This document shows, one piece after another, positions 2,885-32,000 of a stretch of 32,000 bases of DNA (positions are counted from its first letter, which is position 1; every line of letters begins with the position of its first letter). The position numbers and the translations under genes were made by a program. Source of the stretch: Gemmata obscuriglobus (GTDB lineage: Bacteria > Planctomycetota > Planctomycetia > Gemmatales > Gemmataceae). The notes below the pieces were generated by a model that did no database searches, was not told the DNA's origin, and saw only the letters and a program-made list of their open reading frames with translations. The DNA lies in contig NZ_CP042911.1 in NCBI RefSeq assembly GCF_008065095.1, forward strand, positions 5,730,001-5,762,000, written 5' to 3'.

Positions 2885-3005
2885 GCGAAGAACCCCTCTT
2901 CCCCGCCCCCTGGCGGGGAGGAACTTGAAACCAAGGGCGAGTCCGGCGCGATCTCTGGGAACGCGACAGCACAGCAACCATGGCTGTTGTTTTTGGCACA
3001 GCAGC

Positions 3006-3052
3006 CCTGTCTGTGCCGCCACCAGCACCGCACAGACAGGAATGTCTGTGCC
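3006..3052. repeat. Cluster of inverted and direct repeats able to form mutually exclusive hairpins, in the intercistronic region between the binding-protein and ATPase genes
   Basis: CCTGTCTGTGC (3006-3016) is the exact reverse complement of GCACAGACAGG (3030-3040). TGTCTGTGCC (3043-3052) is a direct copy of 3008-3017 and can pair with 3030-3038 instead. GGCACAG at 2995-3001 is a further partial inverted copy. Confidence 0.5.
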
Positions 3053-3109
3053 ACAAGATAACAAACACGACTAACCGGAGCGGGTACGAGGAACAGTTCT
3101 TCCCCCCCC

Positions 3110-4159
3110 TTATTTCTTCGGCCCCTTCCGCAGTTCTTCCGTCGTCCGGCGTGCCTGGGCCTCCGGGTCGTACAGCCCGAGCGTGAACGCTGAGGTCACG
3201 TTCTCCGCCGTGATCAGATACTCTCCGGTCCCCTCGCTCATTTCCCGGCGCCCGTTGTTCATGTCCTCGCCGCGCAAGTGCCGCACACAGTACCACGCCG
3301 ACAGATACCCCATTCGGTACGGGTCTTGAAGAATGCTGCCGATAACGTCGCCCTGCTGGATCGACTGGAGCAGCGGTTTGCTCCCGTCGAACGCCATCAG
3401 TGCCACCTTCTGGTTCAGCCCCTGTGCCCGTAGAACATCGGCGGTGCCCGACGCCGACGATTCGTTCGGCGCGAAGATGCCGTCCACTTGGTTCCCGAAC
3501 TGGAGGATCAATGGCCCGGCCTCGCGCATCGCGGAGTCGCGAGTGGCACCGGCGTACTTGTCGGTGGAGAGCCACTCCGCCCCGGGGCAACGCTCCTTCA
3601 CCTCGTCCTCGAAGCCCCGCTCACGGTCTTCCGTGGCCTGTGATCCGACCGCGTACCGGAAGAGGATGAGTTTCGGCTTATCCTTACGGCGCCGCTGGAG
3701 CTCGCGGATCAGGTGCCGGCCCGCCAGTCGGCCGCCGTTGTAGTTGTCGGTGGCGACGTACTTGACAAAGTGGTTCGGGTCGTCCAGCCCCGAATCGATG
3801 ATGACCACCGGGACGCCGGCGTCCGCCGCCCGCTTCACACACGCGGTCATGGTCGCGCTGTGCTGCGGGGCGAGCACCAGCGCGCTCGCCCCCGTCGCCA
3901 CGCGGCGGTCCACGATCCGGATCTGTTCGAGGGCGTCGCGCTCGCGCAGCGGGCCGTCGAAGATCACGCGGACCCGCGTGCCGTCCTCGGCTTCCAGGTC
4001 GGCGGCGCAGCGTTCGGCGCCCCGTCGCACCGACTGCCAGTGTTCGTGCGACAGGCCCTTCGGGATCACGACGATCGTGTACTCCTCCCCCCGCCGGGCG
4101 CAGCCGGACGCGATCGGAAGCACGGCCGCCAGCAGGAGATAGAGGTGAACACGCGCCAT
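3110..4159 (-). CDS. Sugar ABC transporter substrate-binding lipoprotein (type-1 periplasmic binding protein, RbsB-like)
   Basis: The N-terminus MARVHLYLLLAAVLPIASGC has a lipobox-like IASGC. The body resembles ribose/galactose-binding proteins (VVIPKG, VPVVIIDSG, ATDNYNGG, MAFDG). It sits upstream of the ABC ATPase on the same strand. Confidence 0.85.
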   Translation of the reverse strand: MARVHLYLLLAAVLPIASGCARRGEEYTIVVIPKGLSHEHWQSVRRGAERCAADLEAEDGTRVRVIFDGPLRERDALEQIRIVDRRVATGASALVLAPQHSATMTACVKRAADAGVPVVIIDSGLDDPNHFVKYVATDNYNGGRLAGRHLIRELQRRRKDKPKLILFRYAVGSQATEDRERGFEDEVKERCPGAEWLSTDKYAGATRDSAMREAGPLILQFGNQVDGIFAPNESSASGTADVLRAQGLNQKVALMAFDGSKPLLQSIQQGDVIGSILQDPYRMGYLSAWYCVRHLRGEDMNNGRREMSEGTGEYLITAENVTSAFTLGLYDPEAQARRTTEELRKGPKK

Positions 4160-4190: not shown

Positions 4191-5440
4191 CAGGGCCTTT
4201 CCTTGATTCACTCTACGTAACTCCGATAAGTCCCTTGGCCATTGCCGGGTCCATCTGGAGCCGCTCGATCGCCTCCGGGCAACTCACCGCCTTGACCTCA
4301 CGCCACAGGTGCACCACGGCGTTCCGCAACGCCGCCAGCACCTGTGGTGCGTGCCCCATGCGCACACGACACACGTCCTCGCCCAGTGTCACGTCACGCA
4401 CGTAATGCAGTTCGTTCTCGATGCGCCAGTGCGTCCGCACATGGTTCAGGAGTGTGGCCGCATCCGCCTTCTCGGCCGACAGGCTCGTGATGCCGAAATG
4501 CACTTCGACCGTCGTTTGGCCTCGGACCGTCCGCTCACGCGTCAACTGGAAGCCCTGCTTCACCCCCGCCCACGTCGGCGAGCACGTCAGAATCGAGGTC
4601 GTTTGCAGCGTCCGCTTCTCGATGCGGCCGTGACCCTTATCGACGGTCGTGGCGATGCGGCTCGGGGCGGGCGGAGGCCGATCCCCAGGGGGAAGTGGCC
4701 GCCGCGATCGATCGGGCGGCGGTCTCGAAGGCGAACCCGGCTCGGATGTCGATCCCCAATCCGGGTTGGTTGTCCTTCACCGTGAGCACGTAGTCGCCGC
4801 CGGCCCCGACCACCTCCTCGGCCAGGTCTCGCTGGCAGAACATGGCGTCGCCGACCACGACCTTCCCTCGCAGCGGCAGAATGCCGAGGAGCGTCAAGGC
4901 GGCCTTGTGCCCGTTGGTGCTCGCATCGACCTTGACCTGGGCGAGTACGGCACCGACGGTGGGGGCGTATGCGGCCAGCAGGTGCTGACCGGGGATCGCG
5001 CCGTTGCGAGAGCCTCGAAGGGTCTTGCCGTCGATGGAGATGTGTGTGAAGGCGGCCGGGTCGACGCGGCTGGCGATCCAGTACGAGAGGACGTGCTCCA
5101 GTTGGTCGGCGTCGAAGCGTCGCAGGGTGCGGGAGAGCGTGGAAACGGCCGGGGTCTTGCCGCGTCGGAAGCCGAGGGCATGGGCGAGGGCGGGTCCGTG
5201 CTGTCGCCCGAAGCGAGCGATGCCATTGAGGCTGGTGCGCCCCATGAGCATGGCGAGGGCGACGAGTCCGAGGAAGGGGGCGAGTGGGTGGATAAGGCCG
5301 TGCTTGCTGCGGGGATCGGGAACCGCCGCCAGGGCATCGACCAGGGTGCAAGGAGACATGGGTACCTTCCTGGCTGCGAGAAGGCGCCCCACATAGCCAC
5401 GTTCCCTCGTGTAAGCAAGGTGAAATAAGGAAAGGCCCTG
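4191..5440 (-). mobile_element. ISAs1-family insertion sequence, 1250 bp, with a frameshifted transposase
   Basis: Terminal inverted repeats start with CAGGG: CAGGGCCTTTCCTTGATTCAC at 4191-4211, versus the reverse complement of 5420-5440, CAGGGCCTTTCCTTATTTCAC (19 of 21 identical). A perfect 10-bp direct duplication, CGAAGAGCGT, is present at 4181-4190 and 5441-5450. Confidence 0.85.
4213..5359 (-). pseudogene. ISAs1-family (H-repeat-associated type) transposase, split by a frameshift near 4640-4700
   Basis: The N-terminal part (4637-5359, MSPCTLVDALAAVPDPRSKHG ... VLTVKDNQPGL) and the C-terminal part are in different reading frames. The C-terminal frame reads TTVDKGHGRIEKRTLQTTS ... THWRIENELHYVRDVTLGEDVCRVR from about 4650 down to 4213. 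ISAs1 transposases are normally encoded by one ORF. Confidence 0.8.
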
Positions 5441-11768: not shown

Positions 11769-12096
11769 ATTTATATGCTTAGATCCCGGAAACATGATAT
11801 TTCGCACTTGTTAAGTAATGAATTGGCGGCTACATTACTCCACACGACAACAATGATGTTTGATGTCGTGATTCGGAGACGGGCCATGATTGAGGGCTTA
11901 TTCGATCGCTACTTCCGCCTCCTCGCAGGCCAGTTGCCTGCCGCGGAATATGGCGTGATCGCAGACCAAACCGACGATGCGGTCGGAGCCGTCGTCTCCG
12001 AAATGCCGGAGTGTCTTTGTTGACCTTCCGCTTGCGCCTTCCTCCCGAATTTCATCACTGCCGACCGTCTCCAACCTGCCGACAAGGAGTTTGCCT

Positions 12097-13059
12097 GTGA
12101 ACCGGACCGAGACCGAGAGCCTCTCCCGCCGCGGTTTCACTCTGATCGAGTTGCTGGTGGTGATCGCGATTATTGCGATCCTGATCGGCCTCTTGCTGCC
12201 CGCCGTCCAGAAGGTGCGCGAGGCCGCCGCACGCATGAGCTGCTCGAACAACCTCAAGCAAGTGGGGCTGGCGCTGCACAACCACGAAAGCGCACTGGGT
12301 ACGTTTCCCTCCAGCGTCCGCCCAGCCGGCAGCACGACTTTGCCGCGGGTAAGCTGGACCATTCCGGCGCTGGCGTACATCGAGCAGGACAACCTTCGAA
12401 AGAACTACGACACCAACCAGACGTGGAGCACGACCACGAATCTGGCGGTTACGGCGCAGAAGATCAAGGTTTTCCAGTGCCCGTCGGCTGCCAACGCCGA
12501 ACGCCTGGACGGGGACCCCCAGACGAGCGTGTGGAACATCGTGGCGGTGACGGATTACGCCGCAGTGACCGGTGTGGCGGCGTACGCGAACGCCCCGGGC
12601 GCGGGGCAGCCGGGCATCCTCCAGAAGAACTTCACGGTGAAGATCAACGGGGTGACGGACGGGCTCTCGAATACCATCACGGTAGTGGAGTCGGCGGGGC
12701 GCCCGCAGATCTTCCGCCTCGGTAAAGCGGTGGGGACAGTACCGACTCAGAAGGTGAACGGCGGTGGCTGGTGCCGGCCGGCGTCGGACATCGAGTTCGC
12801 TCCGGCGACCGCCGACGGCACCACGTACACCGCCGGCACGGTCGCGGTGGGTGCGACGAACGGGTTCGATTACCCGACGTACAACGGGGCGCCCTACGGG
12901 ACCGAGGGCACGGGCCAGCCGTACTCGTTCCACACCGGTGGGGTGCAGGCGCTGTTCGGCGACGGTTCGGTTCGGTTCGTTCGCTCGTCGGTCTCCGTCG
13001 CGACCTTCGCCGCGCTCTCGACCCGATCCAACGGCGAAGTGCTCGGTAACGATTTCTGA
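12097..13059 (+). CDS. DUF1559 protein with a prepilin-type N-terminal cleavage/methylation domain and an H-X9-DG C-terminal motif
   Basis: [45 protein letters not shown] is the typical planctomycete pseudopilin-like N-terminus. [14 protein letters not shown] fits H-X9-DG. The GTG start at 12097 is preceded by AAGGAG at 12084-12089. The longer track ORF from 11977 has no such support. Confidence 0.9.
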
Positions 13060-18691: not shown

Positions 18692-20773
18692 TCACGCGAC
18701 GGACGCGGCACGCTGGTCGGGGAAGTAAGAATCGAGGAGATCGAACGTCTGGCCGTCGAACCCCTTGACGTGGACCCGCCCGTTGATCTCGGCGGCGGCG
18801 AGGATGTCGTCCCCGTCCACCTGCACCGCCATCACGCCCAGGAACCGGTCCTCGAACGCGTCGAACGACCCGCGAGCGGCTCCGGTGCCCCCGTCGATCA
18901 CGGTGACGCGGGTGCCCTGCGCGACGACGAGGTCGGCCCGGTCGTCGCCGTCGAGGTCGCCGGCGGCGAGCGCGAACCGGGCGCCGCCGGCCCCGGCCAC
19001 GACGAACGAGCGGCTCACCGCGAGGATCGCCGGGTCGAACGCCTTGACGTGGGCCCCGGCCGCCGCGCCGGCAGCGACGATCAGCTCGTTGCGCCCGTCC
19101 CCGTCGGTGTCGCCCACGGTGGCCGCGACCGCGCCGCGGTAGCCCTCGAACGCGAAGAAGCTCGCGACCAGCCCGCCGGTGGCCCCGTCGAACACCTTGA
19201 CGTGCCCGTTGGTGTCGGCGGTGACGACCAGGTCGGCGACCCCGTCACCGGTCAGGTCGCCGGCGCCCAGGTGGAGCCCGCCCCGATACCCGTCAAACGC
19301 GAAGAAGCTGTGGGCCTCGGTCCCGGTGGTCCCGTCGAACACCTTGACGTGCCCGTCGGCCCCGGTGACGACGTCGGCGGTTCCGTCGGCGGTCATGTCG
19401 GCGGCGGTCGTGACCACGCGCCCAGCGTACCCGGTGTACGGGGTGACCGTCGCGCGGGTCGTGCCGTCGGGGTTGAGCACGCGGATGGTGCCGGTGCCAT
19501 CGGGCGCGTTCAGTACCGGCCCTGGTACCGGAGACGGTGAAGGCGTGGGGGCCGGTGAAGGCGCGGGATCCGGTCCCGGCGGCGGCGGAGGAGGTGGCGG
19601 AGGCGGCGGGTCGGACAGCAGCACCCCGCGCAACTCGAACGCGCCCGAGCCGTCGGGGCTTGCGAACACAACCAGGCTCTGGTTAGCGGCCGCGCCCAGG
19701 CCGAGCGAGTACGACTCGACCGCCGTACCCGAGAGCGTAACTGCGGCCCCGACCGGCGCCCCGGCCGCAGAGAACGTCTCGGCGACCAGCGCCCCGGACG
19801 CGAGCGCGTACACCACCACCGTGTTGCCCGCGGCGTCGGTCCGGGCCGAAAGTGGCGCGGTGCCGCTCACCCCGGTCGCCAGCACCACCTGTGGGTCCAG
19901 TGTGGGGCTGCTGCTGGTGTACGTGACCGCTCGCGCGACCAGTTGGTAGGTGCCGCCCGAGTCCTCAACAGAGATCACCCGCCAGGCGTCCGCGCCGGGC
20001 GCGCGGGTGATGACCGGGGCGACCGCCGCGGTGAGGGTCAGGCTGGTGGATGCTGATATTAAGCTCCCACCCGCGCGCCGGAACGGGGCCGTGCCCCCGA
20101 CCCCGGACAGCAACGTCCCGGAGACCAGCGCGTTGCTCGCATCACCGAACTGGGCCGTCGGCAGGAGCGCACCGGTCGAACTGATGCTGGTGGTGGTGGT
20201 CGAGGCGGTGTCGGTGAACGCGTTATAAACCTGGTAGTCGAACCGGTGCGTCAGGCCGTCGCTGGTTGTTTTCCGGTAGGCCACGAGCACGCTCCCGGTG
20301 TCGGAAAGGCTAACGACCGGGAGCGATTCGACGCGGGTCGCCACGCCGACCGCGCTGACGGTGCCGACCGGGGTTCCGTCGGCCGCGTACCGCTGGAGCC
20401 CGATGTCGGTGAGGCTCCCGCTGTCCGGGAGCTGGTCGAACGCCACGACGAACCGGCCGGTCGGGTCCATGTCGACAGCGACCCGCGCCGGGGTGCCGGC
20501 GGTGACCGGCACCGTGGCGACCGCGAGGGGCGCCCCGAGCGCGGCCCCGGCTGCGTCGTACAGCCGGGCGTTCACGGTCGCAGTACTCGTCATGGCGTCG
20601 GTGTCCGCCCACGCGACGACGAACTGCTGGCCGTTGCCGGCCACTGCGACCGACGGGTGATCGGCGCCGATGCCGCCGGCAGTCGCCAGGACGCCGAGGA
20701 ACTGGGCCGGAACGTCCCGGGGCTCAAGCGGCTCGAGTCCGAGGCGCGCGGGGGCGGGGCGGCGGGTGGCCAT
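18692..20773 (-). CDS. FG-GAP/VCBS repeat protein with degenerate N-terminal repeat modules and a proline-rich linker
   Basis: The C-terminal third has repeated DxxGDGxxDLVV...HVKVFDG units (for example DLTGDGVADLVVTADTNGHVKVFDGATG). The linker PPPPPPPPPPPGPDPAPSPAPTPSPSPVPGP separates it from an N-terminal region with repeated FVVA...YxAxG modules. I prefer the ATG at 20773 (MATRRPAPARLGLEPLEPRDVP). Confidence 0.75.
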   Translation of the reverse strand: MATRRPAPARLGLEPLEPRDVPAQFLGVLATAGGIGADHPSVAVAGNGQQFVVAWADTDAMTSTATVNARLYDAAGAALGAPLAVATVPVTAGTPARVAVDMDPTGRFVVAFDQLPDSGSLTDIGLQRYAADGTPVGTVSAVGVATRVESLPVVSLSDTGSVLVAYRKTTSDGLTHRFDYQVYNAFTDTASTTTTSISSTGALLPTAQFGDASNALVSGTLLSGVGGTAPFRRAGGSLISASTSLTLTAAVAPVITRAPGADAWRVISVEDSGGTYQLVARAVTYTSSSPTLDPQVVLATGVSGTAPLSARTDAAGNTVVVYALASGALVAETFSAAGAPVGAAVTLSGTAVESYSLGLGAAANQSLVVFASPDGSGAFELRGVLLSDPPPPPPPPPPPGPDPAPSPAPTPSPSPVPGPVLNAPDGTGTIRVLNPDGTTRATVTPYTGYAGRVVTTAADMTADGTADVVTGADGHVKVFDGTTGTEAHSFFAFDGYRGGLHLGAGDLTGDGVADLVVTADTNGHVKVFDGATGGLVASFFAFEGYRGAVAATVGDTDGDGRNELIVAAGAAAGAHVKAFDPAILAVSRSFVVAGAGGARFALAAGDLDGDDRADLVVAQGTRVTVIDGGTGAARGSFDAFEDRFLGVMAVQVDGDDILAAAEINGRVHVKGFDGQTFDLLDSYFPDQRAASVA

Positions 20774-20881
20774 GGGATGGTCCGTGTCCTGATGGGGCCA
20801 GCCGACGGGCCGGCGCATACAGGACTTATCGTGCCGGGCGGCGAGCAATTGCGGGGCTTATGGCTCGCGCGTTCGCGCCGC

Positions 20882-21866: not shown

Positions 21867-24407
21867 TTATGGTGCGCGCTTCGGGAACAGGACAGGGAGT
21901 GTCGGAACGGTCCCAGCGGTCGGGACGAGTTTTACCCCGGAAGCCGGCTCAGTCCCGCCCCCGGGCTTTGTGAGTCGCGGCTCGTGAGTCAGGCGGTCGA
22001 ACTGAAAAACGCTTGTCGGACCGGTGTCCCACAGCAGGTTCAACTCCCGCGCACCGGCGCGGACCGGCAGTTCCGCACGGAGCGAGTCTCCCGCTCGGTA
22101 CGACAGTTTCGTCGGCCCGTCCGGCACGAGCGGGTAAACCGTCGTGGTGCCCCGAACCGTTCCCTTGCCGACCGTGAACTTTGCCGTCGCCCCCTGCCCC
22201 CTGTGGGTCACAGTGATCGTGAACGGCCCGACGGGCTCGACTCGCTCGAAGGTGAGGTCGAGCGGAACCGCCAGTTCGAAGCCGCGCGGGTCCAGCTCGA
22301 ACGTCTTTTTGTCAAGGTCTCGCAGGAGCACGGCCAACTCAGTGACCGGGTCAGGGACGTTCGGGTTTTGCAACTTCGCCAAGAGGTGCAGGAACCGGCC
22401 CCAATCGCGGAACCGTGGCTCCGCCAGCGTGGCGCCCAATGCGTTCCAGCCGGCAAGGGTGTCCTCGACCCGCATCAGCTTTTGGGTGTGACGAACACCG
22501 TTTACGAACGACGTTTGTAGCAGGCCGGTGATCTCGCCGCGCACCGGGTCCGGAAACCGCCACGCTTCCCACTCTGCATAATCGGCGGACTGTCGCGGGT
22601 AAGTTCGGGCGAGGGTCGCCAGTCGCTCTGCCGGGTCGGCGCCGCCCGACTCGGGCAGGCTCAGCACCGCCGGCGGTCGGTCCGGAGCGCGCACCAACCC
22701 AAGTGCGTCGAGCAGGTCGCGCAGGTGAACGAGTAAGTCGCGGGTCTGCTCCCAATACCGACGCGCCCGGTACACCTCGTCGAATTCGAGCGGCACCTGG
22801 TACGTGATCGCCTCCCCGCGCGGCTGCTTGAGTTCGGGTGAACCAGGGATCGGTTCCTCGGGAGGAAAAGGTGATTGTGTGTCCCGTGTCAATAGCGCGT
22901 CCAGGTCGCGGATCCAGCCCGCGTCGAACGTGCGCTTCAGCGTCAGCTCCGTGCCCGCGCGGTCGCGATCACGGTACCGGTCCACGCACGCCTGCTGCGC
23001 CGCTTCGAGGGCGGCGCAGTCGGCGAGCCACTTGTCACGGAGCTGTGCCGCCGCAGTCTCCCCCCAGGAGTATTCGCCCGGGAGGGCGAGCGCGGTTTTC
23101 AGTGTTTCGCGGATCTGTACCAAATCGGGCAGGCTCCGGGCTGACACTGGCGCCGTCGCGCCGGCCAGCCGCGCGCGGTACGCGAGGTAGTCGTCGATCT
23201 CTTTTAGCCGGCTCTCGACGAACCCTCGCCGGTCGTTCGAGAGCGAGCGGAACGCCGCATCGTTGGCGAACCGCCGCAACGTCTGGCGGTTGCGGTCACG
23301 TTCTGGGTCGGACAGGCGCACCGCCGCCGGGGGTTCGTGTAGCTCGTAGTCGTCGACCCGCGCCGCGAGATCGGGCGCGCTACCCTGGGGCGGGAACAGC
23401 GCGATCGACCCGAACGCCAGGACGAGGAAGCACAGCGCGGTAAGTGCGGCGCGCACGGTCCACCAGAGCCGGGCCTCGGACCGGCGGTGCCGCTCGTGGT
23501 GCGCCTTGGCGGCCGCGAAACAGTCGCGGAACAGTTCCGCCACAAGATAGGGTTCGTCCGCAGGCGTCGGCGCTTCGAGCAGCGGCGGGGGGCGGAGCGC
23601 GACCGCGGCCACCGTCAGGTCGATGCTCCCGAATGAGAGGAACGGAGCCGCCGGGGCGTCGCCGTGGTCGGCCTCTTTGAGGAACTCGTCGAACTCCGCC
23701 CAGGCGTAATCGACGCGGTCCGCAACGCGGGCCTCCCACTCCCGACGTGTGTCACCCTTCTGAGCCAGTCTGTCGCACTGCGTTAGGACCAGGAACACCG
23801 GGAACCCGCCGACCGTCCGCGCGTCTGTTTTCGCCCGTTCGACGGTTGTGAGGAACGCGTCGAACGCCTTGAACGCTTCCGCCAGTTGCGCCCGGGTGCT
23901 GGCCGCATCGACGAGGAGCACGATGGCGTCGGTCTCGACCACCGCGCGGGCCAGTTCGCTGTCGGGGTGACGCTGGGTGATCGGCTCGGAGTGTCGGATC
24001 AGGTCTTCGGCGGCCTTGCCGTCGCAGTCATCAAGGATCACCGTGAGCGGGTCCGAAACGGCCCGCGTGCCGACCCGCCAGGGGCGTAGCCGGACGGTAA
24101 AACTCGTCAGCTCGGCAGAGCTGGATTCGAGCGTGCCGCTGTAAGCGGCGTCGCGTATGAGTGGCAGTTCGGGCGAAGTAGGTACTACCTCCCCGCGGAG
24201 AGTTTCGCCCTGCACTTCGCCGGCGCGCATTAGCGCGCCGATCAGCGCGGATTTGCCCGCGCCGCGGTGCCCAAACAGCAGCACACGGGGAGCATCGAGC
24301 GGTAGACTGCCGGGGTGCGAGGCCACGCGCGTAACCTCCGTCCGTGGTGGCCGCGTTACGGGTGGTCGGTTCGCGGCATCGGTCGGGGCCACGCCCCGAC
24401 ATCTCAT
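21867..24407 (-). CDS. Membrane-anchored P-loop GTPase-like protein (846 aa) with a large C-terminal domain of unknown function
   Basis: G1 is GHRGAGKS (24249-24272), G3-like is DCDG (24018-24029) and G4-like is TQCD (23772-23783). AIVLLVDA lies between G3 and G4. One predicted TM helix, WWTVRAALTALCFLVLAFGSIALF, lies at 23394-23465, followed by about 500 further residues ending in a beta-rich segment. The ATG lies 1 nt after the stop of the upstream gene. Confidence 0.7.
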   Translation of the reverse strand: MRCRGVAPTDAANRPPVTRPPRTEVTRVASHPGSLPLDAPRVLLFGHRGAGKSALIGALMRAGEVQGETLRGEVVPTSPELPLIRDAAYSGTLESSSAELTSFTVRLRPWRVGTRAVSDPLTVILDDCDGKAAEDLIRHSEPITQRHPDSELARAVVETDAIVLLVDAASTRAQLAEAFKAFDAFLTTVERAKTDARTVGGFPVFLVLTQCDRLAQKGDTRREWEARVADRVDYAWAEFDEFLKEADHGDAPAAPFLSFGSIDLTVAAVALRPPPLLEAPTPADEPYLVAELFRDCFAAAKAHHERHRRSEARLWWTVRAALTALCFLVLAFGSIALFPPQGSAPDLAARVDDYELHEPPAAVRLSDPERDRNRQTLRRFANDAAFRSLSNDRRGFVESRLKEIDDYLAYRARLAGATAPVSARSLPDLVQIRETLKTALALPGEYSWGETAAAQLRDKWLADCAALEAAQQACVDRYRDRDRAGTELTLKRTFDAGWIRDLDALLTRDTQSPFPPEEPIPGSPELKQPRGEAITYQVPLEFDEVYRARRYWEQTRDLLVHLRDLLDALGLVRAPDRPPAVLSLPESGGADPAERLATLARTYPRQSADYAEWEAWRFPDPVRGEITGLLQTSFVNGVRHTQKLMRVEDTLAGWNALGATLAEPRFRDWGRFLHLLAKLQNPNVPDPVTELAVLLRDLDKKTFELDPRGFELAVPLDLTFERVEPVGPFTITVTHRGQGATAKFTVGKGTVRGTTTVYPLVPDGPTKLSYRAGDSLRAELPVRAGARELNLLWDTGPTSVFQFDRLTHEPRLTKPGGGTEPASGVKLVPTAGTVPTLPVLFPKRAP

Positions 24408-24408
24408 G

Positions 24409-25059
24409 TTACTCAAACCTGTTTTGAATGCCCGCTTCTTGCACCCACGCGGTGAGCCGCTTCATTTCGGGGTGGGTGGTAGACAAGCGGTCCTTGGCGA
24501 ACCGAAACACCAGTACCGGCGCGGGCTTGTCCTTCGGGCGCTCGGCGACAGCTTTCTTCAGTTCGTCGAGCGTACGCGGCGTCGGGTCACCGTCGAACAC
24601 GTAGAACTTGGCGTCACTCACGTCCGCGCCGCTGAGGATCGAAACGCGCACGTCACCCGGAGTGGGTTTCGGTTCGACCTTCGGCTCGATTTTCGGCGGC
24701 TCGGTTTTCTTATCGTCCTTCGGAGGTGCCGTGGGTTGTTGCTGCCGGTTCTGATCGTCTCCGGTGCTTTTCAGCTCGCCCCCGCCCCCACCGCCGAACA
24801 GTCCGCTGCCGCCGGACCCGAATACGATCAACGCCACGACGATCGCCGCCAGCACGCCGCACAGCAGTCCGCAGAGGCTCTTGAGTTGCGCCGGGGCCTT
24901 GTGCGCGAACACCCACCGGTCGAGTGCCCAAGCGATCAGCCGGCCGCCGACGTAGCCGGCCAGGAAGCCGCCGCCGACGGCCAGCGCTTTGATGACGAAC
25001 TCGGCCAGTTTGTTCGACGCCGCGGACGCGATGCCGTCGGCCAGGAGTGTGTCGAGCAT
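24409..25059 (-). CDS. TonB/TolA-like membrane protein: two hydrophobic helices, a Gly-rich then Pro/Lys/Glu-rich linker, and a small C-terminal alpha/beta domain
   Basis: The helices are ALAVGGGFLAGYVGGRLIAWAL and LCGLLCGVLAAIVVALIVF. The linker reads GSGGSGLFGGGGGG...PTAPPKDDKKTEPPKIEPKVEPKPTPG (24652-24819). The C-terminal domain of about 80 aa reads VRVSILSG...FYVFDG...VLVFRFAKD. It sits between the ExbD-like gene and the GTPase gene. Confidence 0.55.
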   Translation of the reverse strand: MLDTLLADGIASAASNKLAEFVIKALAVGGGFLAGYVGGRLIAWALDRWVFAHKAPAQLKSLCGLLCGVLAAIVVALIVFGSGGSGLFGGGGGGELKSTGDDQNRQQQPTAPPKDDKKTEPPKIEPKVEPKPTPGDVRVSILSGADVSDAKFYVFDGDPTPRTLDELKKAVAERPKDKPAPVLVFRFAKDRLSTTHPEMKRLTAWVQEAGIQNRFE

Positions 25060-25078: not shown

Positions 25079-25591
25079 CTACTGGAACTCGTGCGGCACG
25101 TCGCGGAACCAGTGGTGGATCTGATCTTCCTGCTTCTTAGTCGGGAACCCGCTCGGGTTCTGGGGGTACAGAATCAGGAAGAACACGTCCTTCACCCCGC
25201 CAGACTTGCTCGCCAGCGTTTTCTGGTGGGCGATGAGGCGCTGGGCGTCGGCTTCGGTGCGAATCTCCTGCCGGTCGGGGTCGAAATAGTAGAGCGTGCC
25301 GTCCTTGCGGTCGGTGTGCAGCACCCGGACCACCAGCCGGTCTGTGACGCGTGCTTGAGCGGCCTTTTCCATGCGCAGCAGCCGGTCGCGGGCCTCCGTC
25401 AGTTGCCGCTGGAGCTCGCGCACGTCCGCGGAAAGCGACTCTTTCGGTGGTGCGGCCTTCTCCTCCGGCACGTCGGCCGACTGGGTGCCGCCCACGAACG
25501 GCATCAACAGGAAGATCCCGAACAGCAGGATTAGCACGTCGATGAACGGCACAAAGAACCGCGTCACGGCGCGGCGGGGCGGCGCGATCAC
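25079..25591 (-). CDS. ExbD/TolR-family biopolymer transport protein (divergent)
   Basis: The N-terminal TM segment has the conserved acidic residue, FFVPFIDVLILLFGIFLLMPF. A coiled-coil-like segment (ADVRELQRQLTEARDRLLRMEKAAQ) follows, then a periplasmic-domain-like segment (LVVRVLHTDRKDGTLYYFD...VFFLILYP). The GTG start overlaps the upstream stop (GTGA at 25588-25591). Confidence 0.65.
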   Translation of the reverse strand: MIAPPRRAVTRFFVPFIDVLILLFGIFLLMPFVGGTQSADVPEEKAAPPKESLSADVRELQRQLTEARDRLLRMEKAAQARVTDRLVVRVLHTDRKDGTLYYFDPDRQEIRTEADAQRLIAHQKTLASKSGGVKDVFFLILYPQNPSGFPTKKQEDQIHHWFRDVPHEFQ

Positions 25592-26118
25592 GACTTTCCC
25601 TCGCGCGACTCAACAGGGGCCGGCGTGCCCGCCAGCGAGCGGATCAGGTCCCGACCGATGGTGACCACCCACACCGGCAGTATGTTGATGAACGCCATGT
25701 ACAGCCCTCCGCCGGTGGCGGTGATCGCGGGCGCGTATTTGCGAATGATCTCCTGCGGGGTCGGGTTGGCGCCGGGGGTGATCGAGTTAAAGGTTTGCAG
25801 GATCGCCGCGACGGTGCCGATTAGCCCCAGCAGCGGGAACCACTCGGCCGCCTGGCACAGGTTCCCGAGCCAGCGGTCGGCCCGCAGGTCGAAGTCCGTT
25901 TCCTGCCACCGCAGCGCGCGCCACGCGAACGCCGTTTGCACGGTGAAAAGGGTGAACCCGATGGCGATGATGATCCAGTCGATGGGGGACTCGGCGACTC
26001 GCGCGAGGTAGTCGCGGCGCGCGTCGGAGGGCACCGCCACAAACACCAGAGCCGCCGTCAGCACCGGGACCGCGGCGAACACCAACGGCAGCACCTGATG
26101 GATCCAGAGCCGGCGCAC
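25588..26118 (-). CDS. MotA/TolQ/ExbB proton-channel family protein (short, divergent)
   Basis: FPLLGLIGTVAAILQTF followed by ITATGGGLYMAFINILPVWVV resembles the conserved last two helices of ExbB/TolQ (PLLGLLGTV ... TT..GL). Four hydrophobic segments are present. The GTG start at 26118 is preceded by GGAGG. Confidence 0.72.
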   Translation of the reverse strand: MRRLWIHQVLPLVFAAVPVLTAALVFVAVPSDARRDYLARVAESPIDWIIIAIGFTLFTVQTAFAWRALRWQETDFDLRADRWLGNLCQAAEWFPLLGLIGTVAAILQTFNSITPGANPTPQEIIRKYAPAITATGGGLYMAFINILPVWVVTIGRDLIRSLAGTPAPVESREGKS

Positions 26119-26271: not shown

Positions 26272-26658
26272 TCACTTCGCCTCCGCAAGCCATGCGGGCA
26301 TCTCACGGAGCTTGCCGTCACGGCCAACGCACGCGAGTGTGGTGAGCCCCTCTGCGATCAGGACGGCGCCCCGGAACACCTCGTACTTGTGCTCGAGGCG
26401 CACCGGCGAGGTGCGGGTCACCGTGGTGCGGATCGTGAGCACGTCGTCGTAGTGCGCCGGGCTCTTGTACTTCACCTCGGCTTTCGCCACGACCAAAAAG
26501 AACCCCTGGTCTTCCAGTTCCTTATACGACTCCTGCCGCGCGCGGAGCAGTTCCGTGCGGGCCTGCTCGAAGTACACTAGGTAGTTCGCGTGGTGCAGCA
26601 GCCCCATGCGGTCGGTCTCCGCATAACGCACGCGGATCTGAATTTCACCGGTCAGCAT
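26272..26658 (-). CDS. YbgC/FadM-type acyl-CoA thioesterase (4HBT hotdog fold)
   Basis: IQIRVRYAETDRMGLLHHANYLVYFEQARTELLR contains the catalytic Asp context typical of YbgC-like thioesterases. The start is the ATG at 26658, with an alternative GTG at 26670. Confidence 0.85.
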   Translation of the reverse strand: MLTGEIQIRVRYAETDRMGLLHHANYLVYFEQARTELLRARQESYKELEDQGFFLVVAKAEVKYKSPAHYDDVLTIRTTVTRTSPVRLEHKYEVFRGAVLIAEGLTTLACVGRDGKLREMPAWLAEAK

Positions 26659-26727
26659 CTCGGACCTCACAAACGGCCCGCTCGGGCCGGGCCAGTCACG
26701 CGCCCCGTCGCCCGGCGGCGCGGGCGA

Positions 26728-28554
26728 TTACTTGATGAACCCGACGCGGTTCTTTCCCGGGGTCGGTCGGACCGGCGGCCAGCCGAGCTTCCAGTCGAGG
26801 TACAACGGGAAGAACACGAACACCGCCTTTCCCAACATGAGTCGGTCGGGGACGGTCCCCCAGGAGCGGCTGTCGGAACTGGCCGCGCTGTTGTCGCCCA
26901 TGCAGAAGTAGTGCCCGGGCTGCACATAGTAGATGTCGCCCTCGTTGTAGTTGGGCGACGGACCGGAACCCGCGGGCGACCGCAGGCTGAGCGGCAGCGG
27001 GCTGGCGTCCGGGTCCGCGTACTTGGAGCTCTGATCGCGGTTCCAGGTGTAGTAAATGTCGCGGTGCAGGGTGATGTGCCGGACTGTGGCCCCGCCTTTC
27101 GCACCGATCCCGGCCGGCGCCTCCACGTCGTTGGCCCTAATCCACCCCTCTCTGTTGGTGTCGAACTCGTCGTAATCGGTCTCCTTGAGCGGCGTGCGCT
27201 CGTAATCGGCGGCGCCGCCGAAGTCGATCCGCTGACCATCCACCCACACCCAGAGCCGGGCGTCCACGTTGGCGAACCGGAGCCGGTGCGTCCCGGCGGT
27301 CACCGCGCAAGGCCGAGCGCTCAGCTCGGCGTTCTGGCCACCGGACCGCGTGAGTGTGACCTTCCCGTTGCCGAAGGTGGCGCGGAACCGGTCCATTCCG
27401 CGCGACAGTTCCAGGGAGACCTCGGCACCGGGCGCCAACTCGGCCTCGCACTCCAAGATCAGGTCGCCGACCCAGAGTTGCTCGTCGGACTCGGTGGGGC
27501 GGCTGACGTTGTAACCCAGGAAGTTGTCGATGAGCCGGTCGGTGACCTTGGCCTTGTCGGTCGGCCACTCGCCCCGGAGGTGCCTGGCGTCGTCATCGTC
27601 CACACCCCGGCCGCGCTCCCCGACCCGCCACTCGGTGCGGGAGTGCCGGTACCGGAGCCAGTCCAAGCTGTCGCCCTTGTGAGCGAACGCGCGTGGGGCA
27701 GTCGGCGCGTCGGTGGTCCACGCCTCGGGCCGCTCCGGCGCGTGCCACCGCGGTCGGGCCAGTTGTGCGATGTCCTCCGGCTGTCGGTCGTTGTCCCAGA
27801 CGATTCGGCGGTCCGCGAGCAACTGCCCTTCCTCTTTCCGCACGATCCGGAAGCCGCCGTCAATGTGGGGGGGGAAGCCGGCGTTCCGCGACGCCTCGAA
27901 CCGCGCGACCGCCTGCGGGCTGTTCCGGTGCCGGAACCGGGGCTGCCACCAGTCCAGTTTCGGCGCGTCCGGGACGGGGTACGACAACGACGACGTGACA
28001 TACAGGTCGCCGCGGTGGACGGCCAAGGTTTCCCCTCCGGAGCCCATCATCCGCTTGATGTAGTTCTGGGCCGTCTGCTGCGTCTGCGGCGCCTCCGGGT
28101 ACTTGAACACCACCACGTCGCCACGTTCGGGTTCACGGAGGTGGTAGAGCGGTTTCAGCACCAGCACCCGGTCACCGCTGTTGTTACGCGGCCACTCCGG
28201 GAGGTCATCGATTTGCCCCCGGTGCCGGCAGTTGGGGCACACGTAATGCGTGAGCCGCACGAGCTTTCGGTTCTGTAGCGGGTTGTCCGGCGCGTCTCCC
28301 TCGACCTCGCTATGCGAGTTGAGCGGGAACGTGTGGCCGCACTTCGGACAGGGTATAATCTTCTGATAGCCGTAAAGCGTTTCAGCCATCGACCCGGTGG
28401 GGATGACAAACGCTTCGGTGATGAACAGCTTCAGCAAGAGAACCAGAACGACGACGAATACGATCGTCTCGACGACCTCACGGGCCGGATCGCGGTGCGC
28501 CTTTTTCTTCTCGTCTTCGGCGGTCTTGGCGGGATCGGCGGTCGCGGTTGGCAT
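26728..28554 (-). CDS. lepB: Signal peptidase I (S26), giant paralog 2 with a zinc-ribbon insertion
   Basis: Box B is VIPTGSMAETL, box C is GDVVVFKYP, box D is YIKRMMGSGGETL and box E is GDNSAASSDSRSWGTVP. A CPKC...CPNC insertion follows the catalytic Ser motif, and an insertion of more than 300 aa lies between boxes D and E. The ATG at 28554 is preferred over the GTG at 28659. Confidence 0.85.
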   Translation of the reverse strand: MPTATADPAKTAEDEKKKAHRDPAREVVETIVFVVVLVLLLKLFITEAFVIPTGSMAETLYGYQKIIPCPKCGHTFPLNSHSEVEGDAPDNPLQNRKLVRLTHYVCPNCRHRGQIDDLPEWPRNNSGDRVLVLKPLYHLREPERGDVVVFKYPEAPQTQQTAQNYIKRMMGSGGETLAVHRGDLYVTSSLSYPVPDAPKLDWWQPRFRHRNSPQAVARFEASRNAGFPPHIDGGFRIVRKEEGQLLADRRIVWDNDRQPEDIAQLARPRWHAPERPEAWTTDAPTAPRAFAHKGDSLDWLRYRHSRTEWRVGERGRGVDDDDARHLRGEWPTDKAKVTDRLIDNFLGYNVSRPTESDEQLWVGDLILECEAELAPGAEVSLELSRGMDRFRATFGNGKVTLTRSGGQNAELSARPCAVTAGTHRLRFANVDARLWVWVDGQRIDFGGAADYERTPLKETDYDEFDTNREGWIRANDVEAPAGIGAKGGATVRHITLHRDIYYTWNRDQSSKYADPDASPLPLSLRSPAGSGPSPNYNEGDIYYVQPGHYFCMGDNSAASSDSRSWGTVPDRLMLGKAVFVFFPLYLDWKLGWPPVRPTPGKNRVGFIK

Positions 28555-28646
28555 GCGGGCCTCGGTACGAGCAGAGCGAGCGTCGTTCGGTATTCGCTGG
28601 CGCGGGCGGTCAATTTCTGCGCGGTGGCCCGCGGTTGGGGAGCCTG

Positions 28647-30194
28647 TCAGTGCAGCCACCGGAGGCGGGACCAGTCGAGCGACTGGAACACGTGATCACG
28701 CCCGCCGACCGACACCCGACTCAGCCGGAGCGGTTGGTGAATCAGGAATGGTTTACCGATGAACGCGTCCTCCGGCACGCCCGGGTTGGGCCATTTCCGG
28801 CTGTCTTCGGAACTCTGGGTGTTGTCGCCGAGTACGAAATACTCGTGCCGGCCCAGCCGCGCCGGCCGGCTCCCGTGGTCGCGCTCGTCGGTGGTCGTGT
28901 AGTGGATGTCACGGCTCAGCTTCAGGTCGCGAACGATCACCTTGCACCCCCGCGCGGCGATCCGGCGGACGGGACGCGACTCCGGCGATCGGGGCTTCCC
29001 AACGGGGTCCAGATCTGCCGGGGGAATGACCATCCGCCCGTCGAGCGCAAGGGTGACCCGGCGGTCAACGAAGGCGAACTCGAGCCGGTGCTTGTTGCCG
29101 GGGGTGAGCGAGACACCGCCCGCAATGCCCAACCCGCCGCGGCCCTCCTGAACGAGCCGAGCCTGCCCCGCCCCGCGGGCGCCGACGCCGAGCTCCGCCG
29201 TTACGACATCGGCGCCGTCGGAGAGCCGGCACTCGAACGCCGCGTCCCCGGGCGCGCCGACCGCGGCGGCGACCTCGACCTCGCACGTGAGGTAGAAGTC
29301 GTGCGCGGCCGGCTCGCGGTCGCGGCGGATGGGGTATCCGTTGTACGCGTTCCACACGCGCACCGGCTCGGAGTCGCGCGCGTCCAGGTTCCAGTGCCGA
29401 TACCGCACCGCGGCGACCGCTTGCGGGCCGTCGGAAGCGTCGAGGACCAGCGCCCCGTCCTCGATTACGGGGCCGCTCGCCGCGCTGGCGCCGTGCGGAA
29501 GCCGCGGGTCGCCCGGTTCGACCAGCCACCGCGCGCTCCACCCGTCGGGCTTGGGCGCGAAGTTCATGTCGAACACCGGAACGAGAGTCTCCCGGAGTTC
29601 GGCCAGTCCCTTGCGTACCAGCACGTCGTTGGCGTACACGTCGCCGTCGCGGATGGTGATCACCTCACCGGGTAGCCCCACGAGGCGCTTGACGTAGGGT
29701 TTGCCGAACTCCGACCGCTTCGGGTTCGGGCACCGGAAAACGACCATCTCCCAGCGCCGCGGCGCGCGCAGGTCGTAGACGTTCTTGTCCACCAGGAGCC
29801 GGTCGCCGCTCAACTCGCGGGCCGCGGCCAGCGAGAGCGTCTGCTCGCAGTTCCAGCAGAGCACCTTGAGGAAGTGTTCGGTTTCGCTGCCGGAACTGGG
29901 GCGCCCGACGCGCGCCGTCGCGCCGCACCGCGGGCAGAAGCCGTCGCGGTGGTGCCCGCTGAGCGCCGGCGACATGCTGCCGGTCGGGACGCCGAACGGC
30001 TCAAGCGCCGCAGTGCGAACGACGAGAAACAGCCCGACGAACGCGGCCATCACCACCAGCCCCGCGCGGAACGGGGACACGTTCTTGGTGGGCGGCGGGA
30101 GTTCGGCGGTCGGCTCTTTGTGTTCCGCGCGTGGCGTGGGCGCCGCCCCGTCGGGGTCGCCCGGGTTCGTAGCGGGTGTCGGCGTGTCGGTCAT
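28647..30194 (-). CDS. lepB: Signal peptidase I (S26), giant paralog 1 with a zinc-ribbon insertion
   Basis: Box B is GVPTGSMSPAL, box C is WEMVVFRCP, box D is YVKRLVGLPGEVI and box E is GDNTQSSEDSRKWPNPGVP. A CPRC...CWNC insertion is present. It lies directly downstream of lepA. Confidence 0.85.
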   Translation of the reverse strand: MTDTPTPATNPGDPDGAAPTPRAEHKEPTAELPPPTKNVSPFRAGLVVMAAFVGLFLVVRTAALEPFGVPTGSMSPALSGHHRDGFCPRCGATARVGRPSSGSETEHFLKVLCWNCEQTLSLAAARELSGDRLLVDKNVYDLRAPRRWEMVVFRCPNPKRSEFGKPYVKRLVGLPGEVITIRDGDVYANDVLVRKGLAELRETLVPVFDMNFAPKPDGWSARWLVEPGDPRLPHGASAASGPVIEDGALVLDASDGPQAVAAVRYRHWNLDARDSEPVRVWNAYNGYPIRRDREPAAHDFYLTCEVEVAAAVGAPGDAAFECRLSDGADVVTAELGVGARGAGQARLVQEGRGGLGIAGGVSLTPGNKHRLEFAFVDRRVTLALDGRMVIPPADLDPVGKPRSPESRPVRRIAARGCKVIVRDLKLSRDIHYTTTDERDHGSRPARLGRHEYFVLGDNTQSSEDSRKWPNPGVPEDAFIGKPFLIHQPLRLSRVSVGGRDHVFQSLDWSRLRWLH

Positions 30195-30258: not shown

Positions 30259-32000
30259 TCAGTCGTCCGATTCTAATACCGCGAGGAACGCCTCTTGCGG
30301 CACCTCGACCTGCCCGATCTGCTTCATCCGCTTTTTGCCCTCGGCCTGCTTGGCCCACAACTTGCGCTTGCGGGTGATGTCCCCGCCGTAGCACTTCGCG
30401 GTCACGTTCTTGCGCATCGCCGCGATGTTCTCGCGGGCCACCACGCGCGCCCCGATGGCCGCCTGCAGCGCGACCTCGAACAGGTGCCGGTCGATCTCCT
30501 CGCGGAGCTTTTTCAGCACCTGCCGGCCCCGCCGCTCGGCAGACGTCCGGTGGACGATCACCGACAGCGCGTCCACCTTCTGCCCGTGGACGAGGATGTC
30601 GAGCTTCACGAGGTCCGCCGGGCGGAACCCGAGCACCTCGTAGTCCATCGTGCCGTACCCGTGCGTCACCGACTTGAGCTTGTCGTACAGGTCGTAAATG
30701 ACTTCCGCGAGCGGCATCTCGTACACGAGGATGACGCGCTGCTGGCTCAGGTACTCGGTGCGGACGAAGGTGCCGCGGCGCTCCGTACACATGCCCATCA
30801 GGTCGCCGATGTTCCCGGCCGGGATCAGGAAGCTGATGCGCACGATGGGCTCGCGGAACTCCTCGATCAGCCCCGCGTCGGGCACCTCCTGCGGCCCGTG
30901 GACGGTGATCACCTCGCCGTCCCGCTTCTTGATCTCGAACGTCACGTTCGGGGCGGTCTGCACGAGGTTCAGCTCGCTGTCGCGCTCCAGCCGCTGCTGG
31001 ATGATCTCGCGGTGCAGCATCCCGAGGAACCCGCACCGGAAGCCGAACCCGAGCCCGTCCGACACCTCCGGCTGGAACGTGAAGGAGCTGTCGTTGAGCT
31101 TCAGCTTGCCGAGCGCCTCACGCAGGTCCTCGAACTCGTTGTTGTTGACCGGGAACAGGCCCGAGTACACCATCGGCTTCGGCTCTTTGTACCCCGCCAT
31201 CGGTTCCGCCGTGGGGGCGACCGCGTCCGTCACGGTGTCGCCGATGTTGACGTATTCGATGTTCTTGATGTTGGCGGTGAAGAACCCGACCTGCCCGGCG
31301 GACAGCTCGTCGACCTTGGTCGGCTCTGGACGGAACTGCCCCATCTCTGTGATGACGTACTCGCGCCCGGTGCGCATGAGCTTGATGCGCTGGCCCGGCT
31401 TCAGCACGCCGTCCATCATGCGGATGTAAACGACCACCCCTTTGTACGTGTCGAAGTGGCTGTTGTAGATGAGCGCTTTGAGCGGCGCGGCGGGGGAACC
31501 CGCGGGCGGGGGGACGCGGTCGATCACCGCCGCGAGCAGGTCCTCGACGCCGACGCCGGTTTTGCCGCTGACGCGCATGACCTCGTCGGGGTCGACCATC
31601 AGCGCCTGCTCCATCTCGCCGATGACGAAGTCCGGGCGCGCGTGCGGGAGGTCGATCTTGTTCAGCGTCGGAATGATTTTCAGGTTCGCGTCGATCGCGA
31701 GGAACGCGTTCGCGACGGTCTGCGCCTGCACACCTTGGAACGCATCGGCGAGCAGGATCGCCCCCTCGCACGCGGCGAGCGAGCGCGACACCTCGTAGTT
31801 GAAGTCGACGTGCCCCGGCGTGTCGATCAGGTTCAGCTCGTACTTCGTGCCGTTCAGCTCGTAGTAGACCGTGACCGGGTGCATGCGGATGGTGATCCCG
31901 CGCTCCCGCTCCAGGTCCATACTGTCGAGGGTCTGGGCCTTGATGTCGCGCTCAGACACCGCCCCGGTTTTAAGCAGGAACTGGTCGGCCAGCGTGCTCT
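30259..32000 (-). CDS. lepA: Elongation factor 4 (LepA), 5'-truncated by the window edge
   Basis: LDSMDLERERGITI, NLIDTPGHVDF and LNKIDL form the GTPase core, and the C-terminal LepA-specific region GYGTMDY...CYGGDITRKRKLW is present. My manual translation upstream of the track start continues in frame to position 32000 (STLADQFLLKTGAVSERD). Confidence 0.95.
   Translation of the reverse strand, partial: STLADQFLLKTGAVSERDIKAQTLDSMDLERERGITIRMHPVTVYYELNGTKYELNLIDTPGHVDFNYEVSRSLAACEGAILLADAFQGVQAQTVANAFLAIDANLKIIPTLNKIDLPHARPDFVIGEMEQALMVDPDEVMRVSGKTGVGVEDLLAAVIDRVPPPAGSPAAPLKALIYNSHFDTYKGVVVYIRMMDGVLKPGQRIKLMRTGREYVITEMGQFRPEPTKVDELSAGQVGFFTANIKNIEYVNIGDTVTDAVAPTAEPMAGYKEPKPMVYSGLFPVNNNEFEDLREALGKLKLNDSSFTFQPEVSDGLGFGFRCGFLGMLHREIIQQRLERDSELNLVQTAPNVTFEIKKRDGEVITVHGPQEVPDAGLIEEFREPIVRISFLIPAGNIGDLMGMCTERRGTFVRTEYLSQQRVILVYEMPLAEVIYDLYDKLKSVTHGYGTMDYEVLGFRPADLVKLDILVHGQKVDALSVIVHRTSAERRGRQVLKKLREEIDRHLFEVALQAAIGARVVARENIAAMRKNVTAKCYGGDITRKRKLWAKQAEGKKRMKQIGQVEVPQEAFLAVLESDD

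Follow-up and report, generated by a model that had tools for sequence, protein, structure and literature searches.

Why should an operon that appears to encode a divergent proton-driven motor end in a gene for a membrane-anchored GTPase? The question is raised by a 32,000-nt stretch of Gemmata obscuriglobus DNA (NCBI RefSeq assembly GCF_008065095.1, contig NZ_CP042911.1, positions 5,730,001–5,762,000 of the forward strand), here called the window and numbered from its first letter. In this window, a minus-strand gene at 21867..24407 encodes an 846-aa bitopic membrane GTPase and stands last in a five-gene module. Judged from its genomic context, the protein is somewhat likely (probability of about 0.55) to be the GTP-switch subunit of a Tol-like envelope machine that is specific to Gemmatales and driven by the proton-motive force (PMF). 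No description of this GTPase family or of its pairing with a TolQR-like operon was found in the literature.

The plus-strand translation of 21867–24407 is riddled with stops, and the open reading frame (ORF) lies on the minus strand, running from an ATG at 24407 to a stop codon at 21867–21869. A preliminary description of this DNA, made from the letters alone, had picked out the same 846-aa frame, which is real, but without its strand. The guanine plus cytosine (GC) contents at the three codon positions (0.72/0.51/0.80, in a window of 66% GC) are typical for coding DNA and support a genuine gene. The protein is 100% identical to C1280_09150, which is annotated as a "hypothetical protein". The GenBank start of that entry is an internal GTG at 24284, giving 805 aa, and an alternative TTG at 24416 would give 849 aa. 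Homologues have 10–15 residues ahead of the first strand of the G domain. Because the annotated GTG would cut into this strand, we prefer the ATG at 24407, the exact start being unproven. The gene immediately upstream, for a 216-aa protein (p216), ends in TAA-c-ATG, leaving 1 nt between its stop and the ATG of the GTPase. Scans for promoters and terminators across the operon gave nothing above chance.

A full-length AlphaFold2 model was calculated from a 45-sequence alignment (A1) with a mean predicted local distance difference test score (pLDDT) of 88.5. It consists of an α/β domain (residues 41–268), a long helix (289–336), an all-helical domain (347–696), and a β-sandwich (702–833). The α/β domain is the core of a predicted cytoplasmic TRAFAC-type G domain (residues ~36–285; 23553..24302, minus strand), in which the pLDDT is mostly above 90. 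When the model of this domain was compared with the PDB using Foldseek, the best 50 matches were all TRAFAC GTPases (E 2e-4 to 6e-3), and no ABC, AAA, or SIMIBI protein was among them. The matches include SR-β, YcjX, RagC/D, Gα, RABL3, GIMAP2, EngB, EF-Tu/EF-G, atlastin, BDLP, and EHD2, as well as chain G of 9edt (tubulin cofactor complex), which we take to be Arl2. No TRAFAC subfamily stands out. The top matches (YcjX, SR-β, Arl, and Rag) have E values of 2e-4 to 9e-4, identities of 10–17%, and target-normalized template modeling (TM) scores of 0.26–0.61, and these proteins differ from the target in having neither its membrane helix nor its periplasmic module. The preliminary description had favored a TRAFAC-type GTPase over an ABC or AAA ATPase, and the NTPase fold of the model, the Foldseek result, and the conservation of the G1, G3, and G4 motifs described below all agree with it.

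Sequence searches placed the protein in no known family. Neither the single sequence nor the 45-sequence profile gave a Pfam match above the curated cut-off, and neither gave any match at all in NCBIfam, PADLOC, or the PDB sequences; what sequence similarity there is stays at the level of the P-loop (ABC, HflX, and AAA_16). The best of the weak Pfam similarities of the G domain were to DO-GTPase2 (PF19993; 9 of 45 members, best 3.3e-6) and MMR_HSR1 (9 of 45 members). The defining features of DO-GTPases are a Glu in Walker B and a partner GAP1 together with variable effectors (PMC7159879); the target has neither. Identity with this family was rejected, since the score was 16.4 bits against a cut-off of 27, position 126 is Asp, Ile, Leu, or Val and not Glu, and the neighbors are motor genes and metF. 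On the modeled fold, the G domain is thus best described as a deeply divergent new member of the TRAFAC class.

Conservation was analyzed in an alignment of 259 family members, composed of matches from a word-indexed search and cluster representatives from an exhaustive hidden Markov model (HMM) search. The G1 (Walker A) motif GHRGAGKS (residues 46–53; 24249..24272, minus strand) is near-invariant (G46, 240/240; G51, 241/241; K52, 240/241; S/T53, 240/241). The G3 (Walker B) motif DCDG (residues 127–130; 24018..24029, minus strand) lies in the sequence VILDDCDG, of which ILDDCDG spans residues 124–130, and D127 and G130 are found in 244 of 249 and 236 of 248 sequences, respectively. In the model, strands 100–109 and 121–128, the latter ending in DxxG, would correspond to the β2–β3 hairpin beside the Walker B strand. 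G3 is followed by TDAIVLLVDA (residues 159–168; D160, 243/251), which has the (A/T)DA-hhhh-VDA pattern of a strand typical of Era/EngA-like GTPases. The G4 motif TQCD (residues 209–212; 23772..23783, minus strand), within LTQCD (208–212), has T, S, A, or N at position 209 (T in 212 sequences) and K (133), Q (99), H (11), or R (10) at position 210. C211 is present in 245 of 255 sequences and D212 in all 255. On this alignment, the G4 consensus is the canonical TKCD, and TQCD is a common minority variant inside the family. The suggestion in the preliminary description that the T-Q-x-D variant could change nucleotide specificity is not supported, as the guanine-reading D212 never varies, and the G domain is predicted to be guanine-specific. 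From these motifs, we infer that it binds and hydrolyzes GTP.

The four strings read in the preliminary description (GHRGAGKS, ILDDCDG, AIVLLVDA, and LTQCD) are all where it had located them, and they are conserved far beyond chance among homologues. Its distance of about 75 residues from G1 to G3 is also right, with D127 lying 75 residues after K52. The insertion of about 70 aa that it placed between these motifs is too large, since the whole spacer is 75 aa, or about 35 aa beyond that of Ras, where the spacing runs from K16 to D57. In the model, the extra residues form a strand (72–76) and a helix (80–90). Position 131, which follows the DxxG sequence, is K, R, Q, or A, and there is no Gln consistently there. 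"HAS" or dimerization-activated GTPases hydrolyze GTP without a Gln after DxxG, and in the present G domain, another residue or a partner is probably required for hydrolysis.

After the G domain comes the long helix 289–336, which holds the stretch with the highest conservation in the family (PYxVAELFRD...) and, behind it, a hydrophobic segment. These parts correspond to a predicted cytoplasmic juxtamembrane helix, PYLVAELFRDCFAAA... (residues 286–315; 23463..23552, minus strand), which is among the best conserved stretches, and a single transmembrane helix (residues 316–338; 23394..23462, minus strand). The preliminary description had correctly noticed the hydrophobic helix, placing it at residues 318–341 instead of 316–338. 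In the 259 sequences, the 20 residues before the transmembrane helix contain on average 5.4 Lys and Arg and 1.7 Asp and Glu, and the 20 residues after it contain 2.7 and 3.4, respectively. By the positive-inside rule, the G domain would be cytoplasmic and the C-terminal 500 aa periplasmic. The predicted topology is N-in/C-out, and no signal peptide was found in the protein. This charge bias supports the earlier proposal of a single-pass cytoplasmic GTPase with an extracytoplasmic domain.

The predicted periplasmic part begins with the all-helical domain (residues 347–696; 22320..23369, minus strand; model md35cb4968b4b), for which no PDB fold match was found, and ends with the modeled β-sandwich (residues 702–833; 21909..22304, minus strand) and a conserved Pro-rich tail. 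Modeled alone from a separate alignment (A2), the C-terminal region has a pLDDT of 93.9 and a predicted TM score (pTM) of 0.81. Profile searches of this region against Pfam, NCBIfam, and the PDB sequences gave no match, and its model had no Foldseek match with E ≤ 1e-3 in the PDB and nothing credible in BFVD. The best PDB fold match was Munc13-1 C1-C2B-MUN-C2C (E 1.2e-3, TM score 0.18), and further matches were generic C2/PLAT/Ig-like sandwiches with probabilities of 0.2–0.57. These give a hint that the β-sandwich may be a C2/PLAT-like binding module. The periplasmic 500 aa are a candidate new fold, confidently modeled and with no structural relative in the PDB. The preliminary description had spoken of about 500 aa without recognizable motifs, a statement that can be widened to the lack of a recognizable PDB fold; the helical region and the β-rich C terminus that it had read from the sequence are both present in the model.

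The GTPase gene belongs to a co-directional minus-strand run comprising lepA, two long S26 signal peptidases, a thioesterase, a MotA/TolQ/ExbB protein, a 170-aa protein (p170), p216, the GTPase, metF, an FG-GAP protein, and ggt. The module that it completes starts with the thioesterase (26272..26670, minus strand), an acyl-CoA thioesterase of the YbgC/FadM family (Pfam 4HBT; NCBIfam TIGR00051, 92.5 bits against a cut-off of 68.7). Its top NCBIfam model is the tol-pal thio_ybgC, yet the score is under the cut-off of that model. The second gene (25588..26118, minus strand) encodes a minimal protein of the MotA/TolQ/ExbB proton-channel family (176 aa; PF01618, 5e-9, 36.4 bits against a cut-off of 22.9), referred to as the ExbB-like protein, and overlaps the p170 gene by 4 bp. 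The TolR/ExbD-like p170 (25079..25591, minus strand) has an N-terminal transmembrane helix, FFVPFIDVLILLF, which aligns with that of Escherichia coli TolR and contains Asp18, the predicted proton-carrying residue, invariant in 26 sequences; its periplasmic domain is not recognizably ExbD-like (PF02472, E = 0.33). The fourth protein, p216 (24409..25059, minus strand), has two transmembrane helices with a GxxxxG that never varies; its linker is rich first in Gly and then in Pro and Lys and is followed by a small α/β C-terminal domain, which weakly resembles the C-terminal domain of p170 (hhalign E 1.5e-3). When compared with E. coli TolA, TonB, and TolR by hhalign, p216 and the periplasmic part of the GTPase showed no similarity, and only the transmembrane helix of p170 matched TolR. 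All equivalog scores are far under the cut-offs. By these sequence criteria, the ExbB-like and p170 genes are a very divergent motor pair of the MotA/TolQ/ExbB plus TolR/ExbD type. In the search for relatives of the ExbB-like protein outside Gemmataceae, the matches listed all have at least 70% identity.

The linkage between the GTPase and the motor genes was counted in two sets of loci. The GTDB set consisted of 80 loci from species representatives, of which the 64 that extend at least 2 kb beyond the GTPase on its upstream side were counted. The reciprocal set consisted of 80 metagenome loci fetched through p170, of which the 44 with enough downstream DNA were counted. The ExbB-like and p170 genes lie upstream of the GTPase on the same strand in 54 of the 64 GTDB loci, including 32 of the 39 in the bin of 25–35% identity. 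The survey thus bears out the neighborhood with ExbBD-like genes that the preliminary description had raised as a possibility. Reciprocally, the GTPase is found within 1.6 kb downstream of p170 in 33 of the 44 metagenome loci. The five-gene order is identical in homologues at 26% and 34% identity. Of 61 loci, 41 show a 4-bp overlap between the ExbB-like and p170 genes. In 96 loci, a median of 92 nt separates the stop codon of p216 from the P-loop codon of the GTPase, leaving little or no intergenic space, and in the homologue at 26% identity, the equivalents of p216 and the GTPase overlap by 4 bp. The module persists at 27–30% identity after loss of the downstream genes for methylenetetrahydrofolate reductase (MTHFR; metF) and γ-glutamyltransferase (GGT; ggt).

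The pattern in which the cluster breaks is also informative. Some loci contain the thioesterase, ExbB-like, and p170 genes without p216 and the GTPase (L110, L111, L113, L125, L141, L149, L151, and L156), three have p216 and the GTPase but no motor genes (L035, L051, and L052), and in seven the GTPase is alone among housekeeping genes (L002, L031, L044, L048, L056, L059, and L071). p216 and the GTPase tend to occur or be missing as a pair, and this pattern of breaks identifies them as the tightest pair of the module.

When the family profile was searched exhaustively against 1.84 billion cluster representatives, 865 proteins matched with E ≤ 1e-3, of which 410 had E ≤ 1e-30; each of them stands for a cluster at 50% identity. 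Among the 150 best matches listed, most have 780–860 aa and align from end to end. A subgroup of 895–938 aa (P0111–P0115) has two large, poorly conserved inserts within the G domain, the first after G3 and the second ahead of the strand containing F259-G260 (A1 columns ~165–220 and ~330–360). One lineage has a short form of ~520–545 aa, consisting of the G domain, the transmembrane helix, and the first ~200 periplasmic residues. It lacks the C-terminal ~300 aa, including the β-sandwich, and is still behind ExbB-like, p170, and p216-like genes (loci L062–L082, e.g., L064:6043–7641 and L072:5995–7563). A split gene with the C-terminal part encoded downstream was considered for this form and rejected, as hhalign found nothing and the next ORFs are DUF1559, HemD, or without a Pfam match. 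The names attached to the GTDB loci are nearly all Gemmata, Frigoriglobus, Gemmataceae, Gemmatales, or generic planctomycete metagenome-assembled genomes (MAGs). The genome scan relied on peptide patterns specific to the family, and no taxonomy came with the exhaustive search, so the restriction to Gemmatales holds for the named records, all of which are Gemmata-type planctomycetes except one MAG contig labeled "Alcaligenaceae". This contig (L080, CAZFGM010000072.1, from an uncultured organism) holds a planctomycete module of ExbB-like, p170, and GTPase genes and is probably misbinned.

Based on these observations, we propose how the machine may work. The ExbB-like protein and p170 would form a PMF-driven motor of the 5:2 type, and p216 together with the periplasmic arm of the GTPase would be its periplasmic output toward the peptidoglycan or the outer membrane. 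In terms of gene order, p216 and the GTPase would hold the places of tolA and tolB in ybgC-tolQRAB. The lack of a catalytic Gln suggests that the G domain operates by nucleotide-dependent dimerization, probably, or by partner-assisted hydrolysis. Through the rigid juxtamembrane and transmembrane helix, it could act as an on/off switch, determining the time and place at which motor and envelope are coupled. As to the physical contact between the GTPase and the motor and the target in the envelope, we infer both from the arrangement described above.

Several observations weigh against this proposal. The motor genes are not upstream of the GTPase in 10 of the 64 GTDB loci, seven of which are also without p216, and no GTPase is downstream of p170 in 11 of the 44 metagenome loci. 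In addition, flanking genes that plainly have nothing to do with the module (lepA, the S26 peptidases/lepB, metF, and ggt) also keep their order in this clade, which makes synteny by itself weak evidence of function; the argument from linkage rests on the tight junctions and on the persistence of the module once the flanks have changed. The catalytic competence of the G domain is uncertain because the candidate switch-I residue Thr98 is only moderately conserved (T in 132 of 225 sequences, in a loop whose alignment is uncertain) and is Ala in the G. obscuriglobus protein. The adjacent E99 is present in 204 of 236 sequences, and the pair T98-E99 stands before strand β2. The existence of the short form indicates that the C-terminal ~300 aa are dispensable in one lineage. 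Finally, TolA and TonB dock on their motors via an SHLS/His motif in the transmembrane helix (PMC12204202), and no His or SHLS-type motif was found in that of the GTPase.

The closest parallel in gene content is the Tol-Pal system. The ybgC-tolQ-tolR-tolA-tolB order of E. coli is mirrored by a thioesterase, a channel protein, a TolR-like protein with a transmembrane Asp, and bitopic proteins with periplasmic domains, and the thioesterase of the module scores best against the tol-pal YbgC model. On the other hand, the channel protein has 176 aa against 230, no TolB or Pal gene is present, and Tol-Pal has no GTPase; homology is confined to the motor core and the thioesterase. Identity of the GTPase with TolA or TonB was rejected, as it has no SHLS/His motif and no Pfam TolA/TonB match, hhalign against E. 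coli TolA was empty, and neither protein was among the best 50 fold matches, so that the gene position alone is analogous. In bacteria of the Planctomycetes–Verrucomicrobia–Chlamydiae (PVC) group, newly reported force transducers of the von Willebrand factor A (vWA) type are encoded beside tolQ and two tolR-like genes, and the survey that describes them mentions no GTPase (Mol Biol Evol 2025, PMC12204202). The present module resembles these systems and ExbB-ExbD-TonB in having a divergent 5:2-type pair followed by lineage-specific, membrane-anchored periplasmic proteins. It differs from the vWA transducers in that the target has no vWA domain and no SHLS/His motif and carries a 300-aa cytoplasmic GTPase.

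The nearest functional analogy is the Agl-Glt gliding machinery of Myxococcus, which combines the TolQR-like motor AglRQS, the TonB-like GltG and GltJ, and the Ras-like GTPase MglA. MglA-GTP is reported to act on the bitopic GltJ (Sci Adv 2024, PMC11135422). In both cases, a small GTPase on the cytoplasmic side would control the engagement of a TolQR-type motor via a bitopic, periplasm-spanning protein, a likeness for which we claim no homology. MglA is soluble, whereas the target GTPase is fused to the bitopic protein, and no Glt homologues were seen.

Three other explanations have to be weighed. The GTPase could be a stand-alone transmembrane signaling protein, in which the periplasmic domain senses a cue, the G domain acts on cytoplasmic targets, and adjacency to the TolQR-like genes is inherited order. 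Such a protein would fit with the long-range synteny of the clade, which takes in unrelated genes, with the ~15–25% of loci that are uncoupled, with the solitary position of the GTPase among housekeeping genes in L044 and L048, and with a transmembrane helix devoid of a TolA/TonB-type docking motif. It would not account for the tight junction with p216 (the 1-nt spacer in the window and the 4-bp overlap at 26% identity) or for the retention of the module at 27–30% identity after the MTHFR and GGT flanks have gone, and the surrounding genes include none for a cytoplasmic effector domain or partner. We regard this explanation as rather unlikely. More doubtful still is a dynamin- or atlastin-like remodeler that shapes the invaginated membrane of Gemmata by GTP-dependent dimerization of anchored G domains. 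BDLP, atlastin-1, EHD2, and GIMAP2 do occur in the Foldseek matches, but these four do not rank above the Ras-, Arf-, and Gα-type matches, BDLP and atlastin having target TM scores of 0.20–0.29, and no Pfam Dynamin_N or GBP match was found. The G domain is membrane-anchored and without the catalytic Gln, like those of dimerization-activated GTPases, and complex endomembranes are a known trait of the host clade (PMC3660258). The possible helical stalk is, however, on the periplasmic side, which is wrong for dynamin, and the operon with the motor is left unexplained. Identity with the dynamin/BDLP/atlastin superfamily was rejected given the weak fold matches, the empty Pfam result, and the side on which the helices lie.

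The preliminary description had drawn a loose analogy with TssM/IcmF, which leads to a third explanation, namely the core of a TssM/IcmF-like secretion system or a Zorya-like anti-phage system on a MotAB-type motor. A cytoplasmic P-loop NTPase, a membrane anchor, and periplasmic helices followed by a β-rich C-terminal domain are shared with TssM, and Zorya is built on a MotA/MotB-type pair. TssM has three transmembrane helices, with the NTPase between the second and the third, whereas the target has one, and TssM is absent from its best 50 fold matches. None of 45 family members gave an IcmF Pfam match, and no type VI secretion system gene was found in the window or in related loci, as the preliminary description had already noted for the vicinity. 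The analogy is thus one of loose architecture, and identity with TssM/IcmF was rejected. As to defense, the PADLOC models, including Zorya, gave 0 families for the target and seven neighbors, a scan that covered neither p170 nor the ExbB-like protein, and no effector, nuclease, or helicase genes are nearby. The location in the core genome, the GC content, which equals that of the rest of the window, and the vertical pattern of divergence also speak against this explanation, which is very improbable and largely refuted. With its matching GC content, no PADLOC match, and the housekeeping flanks lepA-lepB and metF, ggt, the GTPase locus is not a mobile or defense element. The reading that we prefer over these three is the GTP switch of a Tol-like machine.

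Other features of the window were noted in passing. The tandem S26 signal peptidases (26728–28659 and 28647–30194, minus strand) have 643 and 515 aa, compared with ~324 aa for E. coli LepB, and their Pfam domain is broken into two to three stretches; they follow lepA (30259–31959, minus strand). The order lepA, S26, S26, thioesterase is repeated in L001, and in many Gemmataceae loci, the thioesterase has the second S26 gene just upstream. The FG-GAP repeat protein (718 aa; 18692–20848, minus strand), with a weak match to a collagen-flanked surface repeat, is encoded within the most GC-rich stretch of the window (0.71). Its gene sits between metF and ggt and is absent there in related loci, where ggt comes directly after metF or the GTPase. 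On the plus strand, 11977–13059 encodes a pseudopilin-like DUF1559 protein that has a methylation motif at its N terminus, and a DUF1559 gene also follows the short-form GTPase in L067; this family is massively expanded in planctomycetes. DDE_Tnp_1 transposase ORFs at 127–1335, 4213–4563, and 4637–5392 (all minus strand) flank an ABC ATPase (1397–3064) and a periplasmic binding protein (3110–4159), and the last two of these ORFs look like a single IS4-type transposase that a frameshift or stop has broken in two. The whole window was also scanned for Rfam families and tRNA genes, with no match.

Motors of the 5:2 type (MotAB, ExbBD, TolQR, AglRQS, GldLM, and ZorAB) are increasingly seen as a general power source for work in the envelope. 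To our knowledge, little has been described about what turns their output on or off, and we know of no 5:2 motor system with a built-in nucleotide switch. We found no description of a GTPase that is joined by one transmembrane helix to a periplasmic module without a solved relative and that ends a TolQR-like operon. A motor operon whose last gene joins a GTP switch to a periplasmic arm would be a case, simple in genetic terms, of a trans-envelope machine under the control of a nucleotide in the cytoplasm. The envelope dynamics, budding, and membrane invagination of the host clade are long-standing puzzles, and this clade has no FtsZ and a reduced Tol-Pal set (PMC5147048, PMC8871954). A bolder extension, in which we place little confidence, is that the module replaces Tol-Pal in Gemmatales, with coupling to the outer envelope gated by a GTPase fused to the periplasmic arm, and that it may serve in outer-membrane tethering or invagination during FtsZ-less budding division or give the invaginated membrane system of Gemmata its shape. 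If so, it would be the first such 5:2 motor known to us, working through a periplasmic domain that matches no solved structure.

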